A stretch of DNA of 64,000 nucleotides. Source: Candidatus Limiplasma sp. (GTDB lineage: Bacteria; Bacillota; Clostridia; Christensenellales; Aristaeellaceae). Shown one piece after another: positions 20,822 through 61,950 of the stretch. Every line of letters starts with the position of its first letter. The stretch's first letter is position 1. The stretch lies in the NCBI GenBank assembly GCA_963666755.2, contig CAXXGW010000002.1:41606-105605 (forward strand), read 5' to 3'. Both the position numbers and the translations under genes were made by a program. The notes beneath the pieces were generated by a model that saw only the letters and a list, made by a program, of their open reading frames with translations, had not been told where the DNA came from and did not search any database.

Positions 20822-21784
20822 ATGCCGACCGTACTGCTGACCGCCATAGGCTCCGCCGCGGCGCATGCTGCCCATACGGCCCTGACCGCCGCGGGCTGCC
20901 GGGTGCTCGGCTGCGATATTTATCCCCGCGCCTGGAACGTGAACGCCATGGAGATGGAACCGTTCCTGAACGTGCCTCCGGCCACCGATGCGGAGGCCTA
21001 CACCGCAGCGCTGCTGGACGCCGTGCGCGCCTACGGCATCCAGGCTATCCTGCCCCTGACCGACGTGGAGGTGGACGTGCTTTGCACCCGTAAGCCTGCC
21101 TTTGCAGCGCTGGGCGCGACCGTCTGCTGCCCCGAACCCGCCGTGGCCGACCTTTGCCGCGATAAGCTGCGCATGGCGCAATCGCTGGATGCGGCGGGGC
21201 TGTGCGACGTGATCCCCACATGGACGCGCGAAACCCTCCCGGCGGAGCCGCCCTACCCGCTGCTGCTCAAACCCCTGCGGGGCCGCAGCAGTCAGGCCCA
21301 ACAGGTGGCGGACGATGCGCAGGCGCTTACCCTGGCGCTCAGCCAGCGGGCGGATTACATCCTCCAGCCCTATTGGCCCGGCGACGTATACACCGTCGAT
21401 TGCGCCCGCGATGCGCAAGGCAACACGGTTACCCTGACCCGCCGGGAGCGCCTGCGCACTGTGAACGGGCTTGGCACCGCGGTGGAAATCTGCCCCGCCC
21501 ATCCGCTGGACGCGGTGTGCCGCGGCATACTGGCCCATGTAGGGCTGGTGGGCGTGGTCAATATGGAGTTTATCCGCCGTGGGGATACCTACCGCTTTTT
21601 AGAGGTCAACCCCCGCTTTTCAGGCGGGGTTGGGTTCAGCCTGCTGGCGGGGTATGATTTTGTGAATGCCATGCTGCGCTGCCACGCGGGGTTACCGCTG
21701 GTACCGGCTCCGGTTTTCGCGCCGATGACGCTGGCACAGCGCTATGAGATGTGTATCACGCGCCGGGGCGGAGAAGATCAGTAA
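20822..21784 (+). CDS. ATP-grasp domain enzyme
   Basis: ATP-grasp layout (…PLLLKPLRGRSSQ…, …VVNMEFIRRGDTYRFLEVNPRFSGG…). GGGAGGG lies 7 nt upstream. Confidence 0.8.
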   Translation: MPTVLLTAIGSAAAHAAHTALTAAGCRVLGCDIYPRAWNVNAMEMEPFLNVPPATDAEAYTAALLDAVRAYGIQAILPLTDVEVDVLCTRKPAFAALGATVCCPEPAVADLCRDKLRMAQSLDAAGLCDVIPTWTRETLPAEPPYPLLLKPLRGRSSQAQQVADDAQALTLALSQRADYILQPYWPGDVYTVDCARDAQGNTVTLTRRERLRTVNGLGTAVEICPAHPLDAVCRGILAHVGLVGVVNMEFIRRGDTYRFLEVNPRFSGGVGFSLLAGYDFVNAMLRCHAGLPLVPAPVFAPMTLAQRYEMCITRRGGEDQ

Positions 21785-21788
21785 AAAT

Positions 21789-22385
21789 GGGTCAAGGGCC
21801 AAGGGCCCTTGTCAGGTTTCCAAAGGGTGAAACCCTTTGGTAGGTTTGGGCGAAGCCCATGCCCTCAGCCGCAGCGAGAGTGCGCAGCGCGCGAACAGCG
21901 CCAAAGGCGCTATGAGGCGCGCGGGGATAGAAATAAGCCGCATGAAAGCAAAAAGGGGGTCAAGGGCCAAGGGCCCTTGTCAGGTTTCCAAAGGGTGAAA
22001 CCCTTTGGTAGGTTTGGGCGAAGCCCATGCCCTCAGCCGCAGCGAGAGTGCGCAGCGCGCGAACAGCGCCGCAGGCGCTATGAGGCGCGCGGGGATAGAA
22101 GCCTGCCTCATGCAAGCGGTAGAAGCTGGTTAGGTGCCATCTCCTTCCCCGTATAGGGCAAAACAAGGCTCTTGAATACAACCAGAAAGGCCGGGGCGAT
22201 CGCCCCGGCCTGTGCTGTTTCACTTTGGAAGGGTTCAGGCCATGAGCCGTACCCGCGCGCCTCATAGCGCCTTCGGCGCTGTTCGCGCGCTACTTTTTTG
22301 GGGTAGATCCGGGGGACGCAGGGGTTTCACCCCTGCACCATGACAAGGGCTTCGCCCTTGACCCCTCTCCGCTGCGGCGGGGGGC
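21789..22385. repeat. A-type mosaic hairpin-module array: 2 tandem 168-bp units, central hairpin, 1 inverted variant unit
   Basis: Units start at 21789 and 21957 (GGGTCAAGGGCC…TTTCCAAAGGGTGAAACCCTTTGG…GCGCGAACAGCGCCnnnnGGCGCTATGAGGCGCGCGGGG). The central GGCCGGGGCGATCGCCCCGGCC is at 22189-22210 and the inverted variant at ~22252-22385. Confidence 0.9.
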
Positions 22386-22420
22386 TTGTGATTCTACCCT
22401 TACACCTATTTTCCACTTGC

Positions 22421-23707
22421 TCAGGTTTCGCCCATGGCCTGCAAATATTCCTCCAGGCACCAGCCCTTATCCCGCATCACCACGGAGTGCTGCACCCCCA
22501 CATACCGGATATGCCACACCTCGGCGGTAAAGCCGGTAATGGCTTCCTTGCCCTCCTGATACCGCACAATAAACCCATAATCCCAGCAGTTTTTGTGCAG
22601 CCAGATTTGCTGCTTGGTGCCCTTGAAAATCGTATCGGCCACCGTAATATCAAACGCGAGGCCCGTATGGTGCTCGCTGGTGCCGGGGTCGGCCACGGTC
22701 TGCTGCGTGGCGCTCACGGCCGAGGCTTTGGTGCGCCCATCCTTGAGGTACTCCTGCACCTTGTCGTCAAACAGTTTCTTCTGGTACGCATAGCTGCGGT
22801 ACCCGGCGCTGATCTGCCAGCCGGTGATACCGTCGGCCTTGGCGGCCTCAAACATCTCCTTGAGCGCGTCCACCGCCTCGCGGTTGCCCTGAATTTCGCT
22901 GCCCTTAACGTATACCAGGCTGGACGGCAGGGTGTTGCGCAACCCCACCAGATCGCTGGGCTGATAATCCTGCGGCACCGGATGGTCGCGGTTTACCAGC
23001 AGCGGCATCGTCGCGGGGTCCGGCGTAGGGGTAACCTGCACGGCGGGCGCATCGGAGGCGAACACCGCGGCCATGGTGGCGCTGCCGCATACGCCGTCCA
23101 CATCCAGCCCGTTCTGGCTCTGGAACAGGCGGATGGCCTCCTGCGTGCCGCCGCCGTAATCGCCATCCACGCCGCCGGCGTAATAGCCCAAATCCTTCAG
23201 GCGCTGCTGCAGGCTCTTGACGGCGTCGCCCTGATCCCCCTTGCTCAGCTTGGAGGGCGTGGGCGAAGGCGTGGGCGTGGGGATGTAATAATCCGCCTTG
23301 CCGCCGTACAGCGATGCAAGCGTGTCCGCACCGGCCAGCCCGTCGGCAATCAGCCCCTGCTGGTTCTGGAAAAGCTTGACCGCCAGCGCCGTGGCCTGCC
23401 CGTACTGCCCGTCCACCTCGCCGGTATAGTAACCCAGCGTCTTGAGCTGGGTCTGCAGGCGGGTTACCTCGTCGCCAGCGGTGCCCAGCTTGAGCACCAG
23501 CGCCGTCGCGGCAGGGGTGTTGGCCGGGTCGGCCGTTACCATCAGCATGCTGGCGGTATTGGCGGTGGGGGTGGGCGTGGCGTTGCGCTCGCGGTCAAGC
23601 GAGGTATATGCGTCCATCGTGCCCGGCGCAAGCAGGTAAATGCCCACGCAGCAGGCTGCGAGGGCCACCCAGAGCAGGAGGGTTGTAATGCTCGGCTTCT
23701 GACGCAT
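22421..23707 (-). CDS. VanY-type (M15B) D,D-carboxypeptidase with three PG_binding_1 repeats
   Basis: N-terminal TM, three repeats of the type GDEVTRLQTQLKTLGYYTGEVDGQYG, and a C-terminal SAGYRSYAYQ…SEHHTGLAFDI…WHIRYVG catalytic pattern. ATG 23707 follows AAGGAG. Confidence 0.85.
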   Translation of the reverse strand: MRQKPSITTLLLWVALAACCVGIYLLAPGTMDAYTSLDRERNATPTPTANTASMLMVTADPANTPAATALVLKLGTAGDEVTRLQTQLKTLGYYTGEVDGQYGQATALAVKLFQNQQGLIADGLAGADTLASLYGGKADYYIPTPTPSPTPSKLSKGDQGDAVKSLQQRLKDLGYYAGGVDGDYGGGTQEAIRLFQSQNGLDVDGVCGSATMAAVFASDAPAVQVTPTPDPATMPLLVNRDHPVPQDYQPSDLVGLRNTLPSSLVYVKGSEIQGNREAVDALKEMFEAAKADGITGWQISAGYRSYAYQKKLFDDKVQEYLKDGRTKASAVSATQQTVADPGTSEHHTGLAFDITVADTIFKGTKQQIWLHKNCWDYGFIVRYQEGKEAITGFTAEVWHIRYVGVQHSVVMRDKGWCLEEYLQAMGET

Positions 23708-25161: not shown

Positions 25162-26037
25162 GTGCAAAAACAGCTCAAGGTTACATATCATTACAACAGC
25201 GGGTTCTCCATCCGGGTGGGAAGCAGCCTGCTGGTGTTCGACTACTGGGAGGGTGAAAACAGGCGGCTATCCGAGGTTGGCAGGTTAAACCGGAGCATCC
25301 TCAAGGCGTTTGAACAGGTCTACGTTTTCATCAGCCACGCGCATCCCGACCATCTGGACCCCGTGGTGTACGATTGGCGCAACGACGTGCCCAACATCCA
25401 ATACATTGTCAGTGCCGACCTGCCCATTGGCAAGCGCGGCCGCCGCGTCGCCCCGCTGGATACCCTGACGCTCAGCCAGGACATCAGCGTTCAGGCGTTT
25501 GACAGCACCGACCTGGGCGTGAGCTTTTTAGTGACCGCCTACGGCATGCGCATCTTCCACGCGGGCGACCTGAACCTGTGGCACTGGCGGCAGGAAAGCT
25601 CCCTGCGGGAAATCGAAGCCGCCGAGGAAGCCTTCTACACCGCCTGCGAGCCAATCCCCTCTGGGCAGATCGATCTGGCCATGTTTCCCGTCGACCCACG
25701 GCAGGGTCTTTTGTACGACGCGGGCGCCAATCACTTTATCCTGACGAAGAAGCCGCGCCTGTTCATCCCCATGCACTGGCAGGATCGCCCCGAGGTGGCC
25801 ATCGACTTTGCGCGGCGGGCGCGCACCCCGCAAACCGAGGTGCTGGCCATGACCCGCCCGGGCGAATCCGCCACCATCACCTATGACGACCGTATTCTGG
25901 ACATCCACATTGTGGAGCCGCCCAAGGATTTGAACGACCTTCCCCCCACCCCGGCGCGCCGCCCCGATTACCGCGGGCTGGGCGAAACGGGCGAGGATCC
26001 CTTTGCCGATACCGACCTGCCCGTGGATTTCAGCTGA
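25162..26037 (+). CDS. MBL-fold metallo-hydrolase
   Basis: Contains the HxHxDH motif (ISHAHPDHLD). GTG 25162 lies 8 nt after GGAGG. ATG 25141 is an alternative start. Confidence 0.75.
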   Translation: MQKQLKVTYHYNSGFSIRVGSSLLVFDYWEGENRRLSEVGRLNRSILKAFEQVYVFISHAHPDHLDPVVYDWRNDVPNIQYIVSADLPIGKRGRRVAPLDTLTLSQDISVQAFDSTDLGVSFLVTAYGMRIFHAGDLNLWHWRQESSLREIEAAEEAFYTACEPIPSGQIDLAMFPVDPRQGLLYDAGANHFILTKKPRLFIPMHWQDRPEVAIDFARRARTPQTEVLAMTRPGESATITYDDRILDIHIVEPPKDLNDLPPTPARRPDYRGLGETGEDPFADTDLPVDFS

Positions 26038-26059
26038 GGGCGGAATGGGGACAGCGGGA

Positions 26060-26805
26060 AACCGGGTCAAGGGCCGCTGGCCCTTGTCAGGTTTCCAAAG
26101 GGTGAAACCCTTTGGCCCAGCCGCAGCGAGAGTGCGCAGCGCGCGAACAGCGCCGCAGGCGCTATGAGGCGCGCGGGGAAAGCGCTTTGCTTGCATTATG
26201 GAATGTACCTTGCACCCGCCGCAACGGAACCGGGTCAAGGGCCGCTGGCCCTTGTCAGGTTTCCAAAGGGTGAAACCCTTTGGCCCAGCCGCAGCGAGCG
26301 CGCGCAGCGCGCGAACAGCGCCGCAGGCGCTATGAGGCGCGCGGGGAAAGCGCTTTGCTTGCATTATGGAATGTACCTTGCGCCCGCCGCAGCGGAACCG
26401 GGTCAAGGGCCGCTGGCCCTTGACAGGTTTCCAAAGGGTGAAACCCTTTGGCCCAGCCGCAGCGAGCGCGCGCAGCGCGCGAACAGCGCCGCAGGCGCTA
26501 TGAGGCGCGCGGGGGCGGACACCAGCCCTATGCTAGCGGTAGAAGTCGGTTAGCTACCGTATCCTTCCCCGTATAGGGCGGAACAAGGCTCTTGAATGCA
26601 ACCAACAAGGCCGGGGCGATCGCCCCGGCCTGTGCTATTTGACTTTGGAAGGGTTCAGGCCGTGAGCCGCACCCGCGCGCCTCATAGCGCCTTTGGCGCT
26701 GTTCGCGCGCTACGTTTTTAGGGTGAATCCGGGGGACGCAGGGGTTTCACCCCTGCACCCTGACAAGGGCTTTCGCCCTTGACCCTTTTCCGCTGCGGCG
26801 GGGGC
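26060..26805. repeat. A-type mosaic hairpin-module array: 3 tandem 168-bp units, central hairpin, 1 inverted variant unit
   Basis: Unit starts at 26060, 26228 and 26396 (exact 168-bp period). The central GGCCGGGGCGATCGCCCCGGCC is at 26609-26630 and the inverted variant at ~26672-26805. Confidence 0.9.
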
Positions 26806-26840
26806 TATGCAATGAACAGCTCTCTGTCCTTCTCTCCCCT

Positions 26841-27542
26841 TCAGCGGCTATACAGGCCGGTCTGCACCTCGCGGATATACGTATCAATCCGCGGTACCTG
26901 CGGGGTCGCCTGCGCATCCGACACCGCACGGGCCCGGTCATAGGGCAGCGTCAGCAGCCGTACCTCCAGCGCTGCCCCGGCATCCTGCACATCCCCCTCC
27001 AGCAGGGCATAACAGCACAGCGGCTCCCCCAGTGCGTTGCCCACGCTGCCGCAGTTAAAAAACAGCCCCGGCGTAAGCATCCGCAGCGCCTGCCGGTGCG
27101 CGTCGGCACAGCCCACGCAATCACAGCGGAAGCCGTTGCAATCGGTAAAGAAGGGGTCGATCGTCTGCGCATCATGCTGGGCGGTTACCAGCGTGCGCAT
27201 CACCGGTCGGCCGTGGAACAGCCGGATACGGCGGCCGCTCAGCGTGAGCGTCTTTTCCAGCGGCAGGTTACGCAGCGTTTCCATCCGCTTTTCGCCCAGC
27301 TGCCGCCAGTAAAAATCATCGGGCGCGTACTGGCGGTACCCCACGCCAAAATCCCAGTTGCCGCCCAGGATCAGGTCACAGTTAGCCACCGCCCAATCGA
27401 ACGTGCGGTCGCTTGAAGGGCCTTTGCCCACCAGATCCCCCAGGCAGTAGAGGCGATCCGCGCCCCGGCGGGCAAGGTCGCGCTCCAGCGCCTGGGTGGC
27501 GGGCCAGTTGCCGTGCAGGTCGGCGATCAGCGCAATGCGCAT
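26841..27542 (-). CDS. metallophosphoesterase (calcineurin-like, YfcE/MJ0936-type)
   Basis: MRIALIADLHGN…YCLGDLVGKG…GNWD… are the canonical D-x-H / GD / GN motifs. Confidence 0.8.
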   Translation of the reverse strand: MRIALIADLHGNWPATQALERDLARRGADRLYCLGDLVGKGPSSDRTFDWAVANCDLILGGNWDFGVGYRQYAPDDFYWRQLGEKRMETLRNLPLEKTLTLSGRRIRLFHGRPVMRTLVTAQHDAQTIDPFFTDCNGFRCDCVGCADAHRQALRMLTPGLFFNCGSVGNALGEPLCCYALLEGDVQDAGAALEVRLLTLPYDRARAVSDAQATPQVPRIDTYIREVQTGLYSR

Positions 27543-61039: not shown

Positions 61040-61950
61040 CGGGTCAAGGGCCGCTGGCCCTTGCGGGGTCTGGGGCAGCGCCCCAGCGTACCCCGGGCTT
61101 TCTCAAAAAGCGTAGCGAGCGAACAGCGCCGCAGGCGCTATGAGGCGAGCGGGTGCGGCCCACAGCCTGAGCCCTTCCAAAGTTAAATAGCACAGGCCGG
61201 GGCGATCGCCCCGGCCTTGTCTGTTGCATAAAATAGCTATTCTCTCAGTGCGGATAAGGATGCGCCCTTGCCCCGATGCAGCCTGAGCAATCCATGCAGC
61301 CCGCCCCCGCGCGCCTCATAGCGCCTTCGGCGCTGTTCGCGCGCTACGCACTCTCGCTGCGGCTTGGGCCAAAGGGTTTCACCCTTTGGAAACCTGACAA
61401 GGGCCAGCTGCCCTTGACCCATTTCCGCCGCGGCGGGTGCAATGTACCTTCCATAATGCATGCAAAGTGTATTCCCCGCGCGCCTCATAGCGTTTTCGGC
61501 GCTGTTCGCGCGCTACGCACTCTCGCTGCGGCTGGGGCCAAAGGGTTTCACCCTTTGGAAACCTGACAAGGGCCAGCGGCCCTTGACCCGTTTCCGTTGC
61601 GGCGGGTGCAAAGCATCTTCCATAATGCACGCAAAGTGTATTCCCCGCGCGCCTCATAGCGCCTGCGGCGCTGTTCGCGCGCTACGCACTCCCGCTGCAG
61701 CTTGGGCCAAAGGGTTTCACCCTTTGGAAACCTGACGAGGGCCAACGGCCCTTGACCCGTTTCCGCTGCGGCGGGCGCAAAGCACCTTCCATAATGCACG
61801 CAAAGTGCTTTCCCCGCGCGCCTCATAGCGCCTCCGGCGCTGTTCGCGCGCTACGCGCTTCGCTGCGGCTGAAGGCCTTGGGCTTCGCCCAAACCCACCA
61901 AAGGGTTTCACCCTTTGGAAACCGGACAAGGGCCAGCGGCCCTTGACCCA
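61040..61950. repeat. A-type mosaic hairpin-module array, mirror arrangement: 1 variant unit, central hairpin, 4 tandem 169-bp units in reverse orientation
   Basis: The central GGCCGGGGCGATCGCCCCGGCC is at 61195-61216. CCTCATAGCG landmarks fall at 61314, 61483, 61652 and 61821 (exact 169-bp period). Confidence 0.9.

Follow-up and report, generated by a model that had tools for sequence, protein, structure and literature searches.

A mosaic hairpin repeat in Candidatus Limiplasma with paired stems and a conserved T-GAA-A apex

Layout of the two repeat arrays

We analyzed a stretch of 64,000 nucleotides from Candidatus Limiplasma sp. (assembly GCA_963666755.2, contig CAXXGW010000002.1, positions 41,606 to 105,605 of the forward strand; hereafter the window), which carries arrays of a mosaic repeat built from several hairpins. 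The second of these, hairpin 2, occurs in two forms, A and B, that differ in the stem and share the apex. The genome carrying the window (G000) comprises 3.72 Mb in 9 contigs. Regions 21600–22560 and 25980–26900 of the window were read letter by letter, revealing two loci of identical layout: a plus-strand gene, direct units of 168 nt, a spacer of ~130 nt with a palindrome, one inverted unit, and a minus-strand gene. The plus-strand genes end at 21784 and 26037, and the minus-strand genes at 22421 and 26841. Head-to-tail units (two at 21789–22124 and three at 26060–26563) start a few bases past the upstream gene, and the inverted units are located at 22236–22385 and ~26660–26805. The unit at 21789–21956 shares 94% identity with its tandem copy at 21957–22124, and positions 26436–26735 are 87% identical to 22016–22315. 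The individual features are as follows:

21789–21956, plus strand: forward unit 1 (168 nt), starting 5 nt past the stop codon of the open reading frame (ORF) 20822–21784; A-rich lead-in, hairpin 1, hairpin 2 in the A form, hairpin 2b, hairpin 3, and tail
21793–21811, plus strand: hairpin 1 of forward unit 1, CAAGGGCC-AAG-GGCCCTTG
21820–21840, plus strand: hairpin 2, A form, CCAAAGGG-T-GAA-A-CCCTTTGG (direct reading and folding)
21847–21859, plus strand: hairpin 2b, TGGGC-GAA-GCCCA
21887–21922, plus strand: hairpin 3, outer stem GCGCGC, inner stem AGCGCC-AAA-GGCGCT (AGCGCC-NNA-GGCGCT in forward units in general)
21988–22008, plus strand: hairpin 2, A form, of forward unit 2 (21957–22124)
22188–22211, strandless: central perfect palindrome AGGCCGGGGCGATCGCCCCGGCCT between the arms, terminator-like in both directions in a simple scan
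22236–22385, minus strand: inverted variant (B-type) unit; CCGCAGCGG lead hairpin, hairpin 1, hairpin 2 in the B form, and hairpin 3
~22252–22291, minus strand: hairpin 3 of the inverted unit, the same hairpin 3 as in the forward units
22318–22336, minus strand: hairpin 2, B form, GCAGGGG-T-GAA-A-CCCCTGC (direct reading)
22344–22360, minus strand: hairpin 1 of the inverted unit, with a GAA loop
26095–26115, 26263–26283, and 26431–26451, plus strand: hairpin 2, A form, in the three units of the second array
26738–26756, minus strand: hairpin 2, B form, in the inverted unit of the neighbouring array (26060–26805)

Hairpins 1 and 2 are joined by the linker TCAGGTTT in the forward units, and by TCATGGT or TCAGGGT before the B form in the inverted units. 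A first-pass annotation of the window had reported that three base pairs of hairpin 2 are exchanged on both sides between the forward and inverted units of the first locus, that the TGAAA loop is retained, and that the variant recurs in the inverted unit at ~26720–26765. Direct reading of both strands confirmed the coordinates of the A- and B-form hairpins, placed the recurring B hairpin at the minus-strand position listed above, and yielded the same three exchanges in a loop-anchored comparison (C-G to G-C, A-T to C-G, and A-T to G-C), with the five apical letters unchanged. The loops reported for hairpin 3 were likewise found in the window, i.e., AAA(G) at 21903, GCA(G) at 22071, and GAA(G) as the reverse complement of 22272–22274.

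Pairing and apex of hairpin 2

The genome contains 129 perfect stems of 7 bp enclosing TGAAA, 128 of which fall into five stems of the repeat family: CAAAGGG (74 copies), CAAGGGA (20), GCAGGGG (16), CCAAGGG (12), and CAAGGGC (6), with CAAGGGA and CAAGGGC being variants of hairpin 1. All GCAGGGG (16/16) and CCAAGGG (12/12) copies follow hairpin 1 and a TCAGG-type linker and precede hairpin 2b or 3; the A form occupies the same slot, and TCAGG(T/G)T is the linker ahead of hairpin 2. When 79 distinct units were aligned with MAFFT, without structural information, the A, B, and D forms (the last being CCAAGGG-TGAAA-CCCTTGG) shared their columns and their loops coincided, which speaks against the two forms being unrelated modules. 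A and B are homologous and represent variants of one slot. In the same alignment, units lacking hairpin 2 had their hairpin 1 aligned into the hairpin-2 columns, and hairpin 2 of the congener G010 reads GGTCAAGGGG-TGAAA-CCCCTTG. On these two grounds, hairpin 2 looks like an old duplicate of hairpin 1.

Units measure ~110–170 nt and are composed of the modules hairpin 1, 2, 2b, and 3. Arrays elsewhere have periods of 147, 160, 169–171, 185, and 215 nt; a coding origin of the 168-nt period (56 codons) was ruled out, as the periods are generally not multiples of three. Copies within an array are 94–100% identical, and tandem duplication is local, taking in locus-specific tails. Units fold better than 200 of 200 shuffles (z-scores of −2.8 to −5.5). 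Together with the count of perfect stems around TGAAA and the reversed control given below, this puts the pattern beyond chance.

We surveyed loci of related species and 40 stretches of the congeners G010 and G012, and T-GAA-A was found on about a dozen different Watson–Crick stems at these and other Clostridia loci: CCAAAGGG, CCAAGGG, GCAGGGG, GCAGGG, CAAGGGG, TTGGGG, TTGGGGG, TTGGGGA, CCAGGGA, ATGGGG, CAAAGGA, and TCAAAGGG. Pairing statistics were calculated for 33 distinct 21-mers in a loop-anchored alignment, in which differences in stem length count as changes. Paired cells amounted to 94.7%, compared to 76.6% after shuffling (0 of 500 shuffles reached the observed value) and 22–65% for slid partners. 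Changes on both sides were seen in six of eight pairs (49 cells), and the 250 paired hairpin-2 cells contained no one-sided cell of the G-U type; the hairpin finder scored Watson–Crick pairs only, and its cut-off excluded one G-T copy (L143). Sporadic mismatches were strand-symmetric, with four G-T and five A-C in true modules (25 and 23 before alternative folds were removed), numbers too small to decide between RNA and DNA.

Two further observations on pairing concern the neighbouring hairpins. An extended stem of hairpin 2b, found as GGGTTTGGGC-GAA-GCCCAAGCCC and as GGGGTTTGGGGT-GGA-ACCCCAAGCCCC, has a T-G wobble that recurs at an identical position across subfamilies and species (e.g., copies on contigs C3 and C9 of G000, and L125); on the other strand this is a C-A mismatch. 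The outer arms of hairpin 3 (window 21887–21922 and copies genome-wide) co-vary in the direct sense, CGCGCG...CGCGCG versus CGAGCG...CGAGCG, and paired CGAGCG arms would leave tandem A-G/G-A mismatches. Linked changes through descent thus also occur in these units.

For the apex, we conducted a census blind to the loop, anchored on hairpin 1 and the linker and followed by reading of the subsequent sequence. The genome provided 112 slots, 111 of which contained a hairpin and 103 (92%) TGAAA; the count for G010 was 26 of 27. Genome-wide invariance of TGAAA, which the first-pass annotation had suggested testing, thus gave way to strong conservation with exceptions, namely GGAAC (twice), GGAAA, CGAAA, TAAAA, GGTAA, and GAAA in the own genome and an inversion to TTTCA in a congener. 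The five letters are identical in the A and B forms of the window, as had been described, but the outer T and A pair with each other, which leaves a GAA triloop as the loop proper. This follows from joint replacements of T and A and from the folding program, which closes the pair: the A form is predicted to fold into a 9-bp stem with a GAA triloop both as RNA and as DNA. In the GGAAC variant (GGGG-GAA-CCCC), T and A are swapped jointly for G and C; the B stem in other genomes carries C-GAA-G or C-GGAA-G; and copies of hairpin 2b alternate between GGGT-GAA-ACCC and GGGC-GAA-GCCC, i.e., between a T-A and a C-G closing pair.

The loop of hairpin 2 is indeed specially conserved, as the first-pass annotation had proposed. 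Among the same 38 complete units, it has only three variants (0.35 bits), compared to 12 for hairpin 1 (3.0 bits) and six for hairpin 3 (1.7 bits). Two or three G-C pairs beside the loop are as conserved as the loop itself, the columns at least 90% constant being G6, G7, G10, A11, A12, A13, C15, and C16 of the 33 distinct 21-mers. The apex GG(G)-T-GAA-A-(C)CC keeps to one strand of the unit. The loop of hairpin 3 does not vary freely, as had been supposed; it is a triloop rather than a tetraloop and reads purine-N-A in 69 of 69 copies (GCA 48, AAA 12, GAA 4, GTA 2, ACA 2, and GGA 1). Its stem is constant within the window, as reported, but covaries in relatives (AGCCC-GCA-GGGCT, CGCCC-GAA-GGGCG, AGCCGC-GAA-GCGGCT, and CGCGCC-ATC-GGCGCG). 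Conserved structure plus a conserved apex is a general property of every hairpin in the repeat family and its Clostridia relatives, and not a peculiarity of hairpin 2.

The fixed polarity of these loops (GAA and purine-N-A) argues for a fold of the single strand, either DNA or RNA. Purine-N-A triloops are the class known for unusually stable mini-hairpins of DNA, d(GCGAAGC) among them, and the string GCGAAGC is literally present in hairpin 2b, which favours a process at the DNA level. Written as a DNA oligonucleotide, the T-GAA-A hairpin is of the type d(GGGTGAAACCC). At a single locus (L152; G012:C28:42700-45500, minus strand, near 2355 and 2144), the hairpin 2 loop is inverted in place to TTTCA, with the stem unchanged and the unit otherwise forward; TTTCA was seen once in ~160 hairpins. 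Another locus (L144) contains a chimeric A/B hairpin.

Distribution and comparison with known families

Among 40 relatives, the hairpin-1 pattern was confined to one genus, with 127 matches in the genome carrying the window and none for a reversed control in either search. Copy number ranged from 0 to 168 per genome across 25 congeners. The hairpin-1 head was identified in many Oscillospiraceae, Ruminococcus, Eubacteriales, and Candidatus Limiplasma metagenome-assembled genomes (MAGs) in a scan with one genome per species. The array at 21789 itself is not shared: none of the 11 congeners that have the orthologue of its flanking gene (63–72% protein identity) carries a family repeat downstream of it. 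The array does not represent a long-standing regulatory feature of its gene, and its absence from these congeners opens the possibility that the constraint serves the element rather than the host.

Genes were called with a simple codon-usage caller, and intergenic gaps of at least 50 nt served as background. We identified 78 oriented runs in 64 intergenic regions, and no anchor lay inside a called gene. Convergent regions prevailed (43 of 64, 67%), followed by 19 co-directional and two divergent ones (3%), whereas the background contained 22%, 58%, and 20%, respectively. Arrays usually start ~5–50 nt past a stop codon with no terminator between. They are direct repeats with periods of 147–215 nt and at most one orientation switch per composite locus, the arms of which always have hairpin 1 outward (10 vs. 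0). Composite loci are "sense" by construction because of this outward orientation, and an apparent bias relative to transcription (36 vs. 7) is largely built into them. Lone runs were sense in 29 and antisense in 21 cases, which is not significant. Cumulative GC skew put the origin at ~0–20 kb on contig C9, close to its start, and the terminus around 1.28 Mb. C9 has its repeats mainly in its first 0.9 Mb and last 0.3 Mb; the higher-GC contigs C2–C6 are also rich in them, and contig C8 (324 kb, 57.6% GC) contains none.

Searches for known families returned little. The best Rfam hit was Clostridiales-2 (21.2 bits against a gathering threshold of 58.6, E = 0.22), with only noise up to E 10, and a scan of 18 related loci, including the sister repeat described below, gave no Rfam match. 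Hairpin 2 was not flagged as an intrinsic terminator on either strand; the only flags fell on the central palindrome and, in the reverse-strand reading, on hairpin 1 (T run starting 5 nt past the stem). A literature search on sequence strings and on repeats of Clostridia found nothing relevant.

High copy number and extragenic location (in addition to the hairpin-1 matches, ~110 hairpin-2 hairpins) are shared with repetitive extragenic palindromic (REP) sequences and REP doublets forming hairpins (REPINs). The closest likeness is to group 2 REPs and their TnpA-REP/RAYT enzymes, e.g., in Stenotrophomonas maltophilia (PMC8266576; PMC2817692; PMC3116915). Both are GC-rich extragenic hairpins in high copy with a 3-nt loop. 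Both combine a constant apex with a free but paired stem, and both are placed behind genes. Unlike the single palindrome of 20–40 nt found there, the units described here span 110–170 nt with four different hairpins, and neither an intact Y1/RAYT gene in this genome or G010 nor a GTAG/CGTC tag accompanies them. The domain PF01797 (Y1/RAYT) was found only as broken fragments in G000 and not at all in G010 (67 copies of the repeat). Intact PF01797 genes occur in three of 25 congeners, unrelated to copy number and with no family hairpins in the surrounding loci. The 4-mers before hairpin 3 were GCAG (23), GTAG (20), CAAG (12), GAAG (10), and others (n = 92), so that no conserved GTAG/CGTC tag was found. 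A partner of the RAYT/IS200 type was thereby ruled out, there being neither correlation with copy number nor adjacency in the genome and 25 congeners. The identity as a RAYT-linked REP was excluded on the lack of an intact Y1 gene here or in G010, of adjacency, and of a GTAG tag.

Bacterial interspersed mosaic elements (BIMEs) of enterobacteria are similar in that they are modular extragenic mosaics combining palindromic units with other motifs, often follow the final gene of an operon, and vary in copy number. REPs in BIMEs are regularly spaced and alternate in orientation (PMC2817692), whereas the present units run head-to-tail with at most one inverted closing unit, and the sequences are unrelated. 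A strict BIME identity was excluded, since orientations do not alternate. Miniature transposable elements with inverted repeats (MITEs) are marked by such repeats at their termini, by duplication of the target site, and by empty sites in relatives. Composite loci of our repeat have inverted arms, with hairpin 1 always outward; the locus is repeat-free in 11 congeners, but gene order differs there too, which obscures any clean empty site or duplication. BOX elements of Streptococcus pneumoniae have the modular structure boxA-boxB(n)-boxC with variable tandem internal modules and strong predicted structure. They resemble our repeat as modular intergenic repeats of Firmicutes and differ from it in sequence, size, and host lineage. 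Like our repeat, BOX elements are not known to have a dedicated transposase, and they are not known to carry a conserved triloop apex.

Competing explanations and related repeats

The explanation we rank first, though at slightly less than an even chance, is a REP-like mechanism at the DNA level. Hairpin 2 would belong, as one module, to a REP/BIME-like mosaic repeat that is lineage-specific, amplifies, and forms head-to-tail arrays after stop codons, some closed by a single inverted B-type unit across a terminator-like palindrome. What is kept is a strictly Watson–Crick stem, whatever its basal sequence, plus the apex on a fixed strand, and the constraint probably acts on the forward-strand fold while it is single-stranded. 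Most likely, the DNA hairpin would be a handle for copying machinery, comparable to perfect-palindrome REPs, of which an HUH enzyme binds the folded single strand (PMC8266576). In vitro, binding of those REPs depends on the first G of the loop and on a stem without interruptions; inversion of the loop abolishes it, whereas block-wise complementary stem changes have only a modest effect (PMC8266576). The arms may in part be kept complementary by template switching during replication, in which one arm is copied from the other. This process is known to introduce several complementary stem changes at once and to invert loops (PMC8794818). The same hairpins also occur in 3′ untranslated region (UTR) RNA, as the arrays lie between stop codons and terminators; we regard this as secondary. 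The Watson–Crick-only pairs, the TTTCA inversion, the chimeric A/B hairpin, the strand-symmetric mismatches, and the lack of an orientation preference of lone units argue for a process at the DNA level. The uneven copy number (0–168), the empty orthologous locus in 11 congeners, and the convergent placement argue for a role at the level of the element rather than the host.

Several observations weigh against this explanation. Register shifts between stems of unequal length inflate the counts of changes on both sides, and many copies are recent duplicates, so that independent events are far fewer than cells or copies. Large arrays with a single orientation run sense to the upstream gene in 14 versus two cases (own count), 20–50 nt past the stop, and large arrays lie upstream of locus-specific terminator-like hairpins, which fits an RNA role at least equally well. 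Orientation relative to replication (28 co-oriented vs. 16) is not significant and confounded with gene strand. Folding, whether as RNA or as DNA, does not favour either strand. Mobility is derived from distribution only, as no target duplication or empty/filled pair is defined, and the Y1/RAYT search provided no candidate enzyme, with fragments here and none in the repeat-rich G010.

An RNA role is the alternative that we rank second, as a possible but less probable one. Arrays between stop codons and terminators must be transcribed, and as 3′ UTR RNA their hairpins could contribute to the stability or the processing of the upstream mRNA or insulate convergent genes from each other, with the UGAAA loop of hairpin 2 as a specific contact site for protein or RNA; in that case the covariation would result from selection on RNA structure. 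The start of arrays shortly past stop codons with terminator-like hairpins behind them, the sense orientation of large arrays, the 67% share of convergent regions, the strand-specific loop polarity, and the recurrent forward-strand T-G wobble in the extended hairpin 2b stem (GGGTTTGGGC...GCCCAAGCCC) all fit such a role. RNA covariation, however, normally proceeds via G-U, and none was found among the paired hairpin-2 cells. Lone units hardly prefer the sense orientation, that of composites is built in, the array is not conserved at the orthologous locus of 11 congeners, and no Rfam family matched. In addition, U-A-closed loops of 3 nt are not known as a favoured RNA motif.

It is rather unlikely, and ranked third, that neither loop nor copies are under constraint, and that the units are self-perpetuating junk, i.e., young descendants of few master copies whose palindromes are kept by template switching or hairpin-templated repair. 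The near-identity of copies within arrays, array growth by local tandem duplication including locus-specific tails, the highly uneven copy number among congeners, the one loop inversion (L152), and the one chimeric hairpin (L144) would be expected from such a history, and template switching is known to make matched changes (PMC8794818). Against this, about a dozen diverged stems from several species and families all retain T-GAA-A, in units whose hairpin 1 and hairpin 3 loops vary widely; template switching alone would invert loops as readily as mend stems, and hairpin 3 loops are purine-N-A throughout. Quasipalindrome mutagenesis by template switching (PMC8794818; PMC8604942) resembles our findings in its one-step complementary changes, homogenised arms, and inverted loops, to which the TTTCA copy fits. 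However, it is a mutational process and not an element family, and alone it does not explain the retained GAA polarity. We consider a double-stranded operator, the arms of which match as equal half-sites for a dimeric DNA-binding protein, very improbable. The arms are strictly complementary and the core GGGT-N3-ACCC is itself a conserved palindrome, but the half-site differs at three of seven positions between A and B and at more in other stems, which a single protein would not tolerate. Moreover, the non-palindromic GAA centre holds one polarity relative to the unit, and divergent regions, which contain promoters, are avoided (2/64).

Returning to the DNA-level, REP-like mechanism, the core of the first-pass interpretation holds in that structure and a specific apex are kept, pointing to a recognised single-stranded fold. 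Two-sided changes and a constant apex hold widely, but selection is not the sole source of double changes. In-place inversion to TTTCA is what template switching typically leaves behind (PMC8794818). Mutation rather than selection may account for part of the compensation, and matched double substitutions in DNA palindromes are by themselves no proof of selection on RNA structure. The beneficiary may be the element, through its own spread, rather than the host.

A more speculative idea, which we put forward with low confidence, is that the apex GGG-T-GAA-A-CCC is the recognition site of a putative structure-specific protein other than RAYT, acting on folded single-stranded DNA or RNA, and that the CGCA-loop hairpin of sister repeats in Ruminococcus and Oscillospiraceae is recognised likewise. 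Such a protein would either drive or make use of a hairpin-repeat superfamily spanning gut Oscillospirales, and the whole would represent a REP-like system with a new partner. The hairpin 2 finding is solid but fairly ordinary, as this kind of element is known; what is new is this repeat family, together with its apex motif and the lack of a RAYT partner. A partner other than RAYT would extend the REP paradigm to a new enzyme and a new phylum-level setting. The constant 11-nt apex on a freely covarying stem is a candidate recognition element and a possible bait for the handling protein. The repeats are abundant in an uncultured high-GC genus of gut Clostridia that includes 'Clostridiales bacterium Firm_11' (G010), with relatives in many Oscillospiraceae and Ruminococcus MAGs, and the arrays are likely hot spots for assembly breaks and strain-level length variation in gut metagenomes.

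Some further observations concern related repeats and the parts surrounding hairpin 2. Paired hairpins of the form GGTCCAGGG...CCCTGG-CGGGG-GGTCAAGGGG...CCCCTTG were found in MAGs assigned to Myxococcota (L007), Polyangium (L013), and Acetobacteraceae (L035), and L013 also contains TTGGGG-TGAAA-CCCCAA. These occurrences in unrelated phyla could reflect chance, bin contamination, or a wider family. A sister repeat that shares the hairpin-1 head (GGTCAAGGG...CCCTTG), with TCGC-NNNN-CGCA-NNNN-GCGAAA immediately after it, is present at L057, L016, L017, L024, L028, L079, and ~40 other loci in Ruminococcus and Oscillospiraceae MAGs. Its base and CGCA loop are constant and its mid-stem takes 21 forms, 20 of them perfectly Watson–Crick, i.e., the same design principle as in hairpin 2.

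Directly before hairpin 1, 41 of 77 A units and 10 of 13 D units (including window 21783–21792) have an A-rich run, AAAAA(T/G)G, while B units carry the CCGCCGCAGCGG lead hairpin in its place. On the reverse strand, the run turns hairpin 1 into a hairpin followed by a T run, which the scan flagged as terminator-like, and the arrays might halt antisense read-through coming from the convergent gene. At G000:C4:29245-31683 (L162), two opposed arrays, their hairpin 1 facing outward as in the composites, are separated by 1.7 kb where ~130 nt is usual; this segment was checked for a transposase and contains ORFs of 221 and 181 aa with no Pfam match. The palindrome core CCGGGGCGATCGCCCCGG has six genomic copies, each in the middle of a composite locus between opposed repeat arms:

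22188–22211, 26608–26631, and 61195–61216 of the window (the last being G000:C2:102800-102821)
C2:182278, C4:20925, and C9:54281 of G000

A variant of the palindrome, GGCCGGGGCAGTCGCCCCGGCC, is placed after an array at C5:67600.

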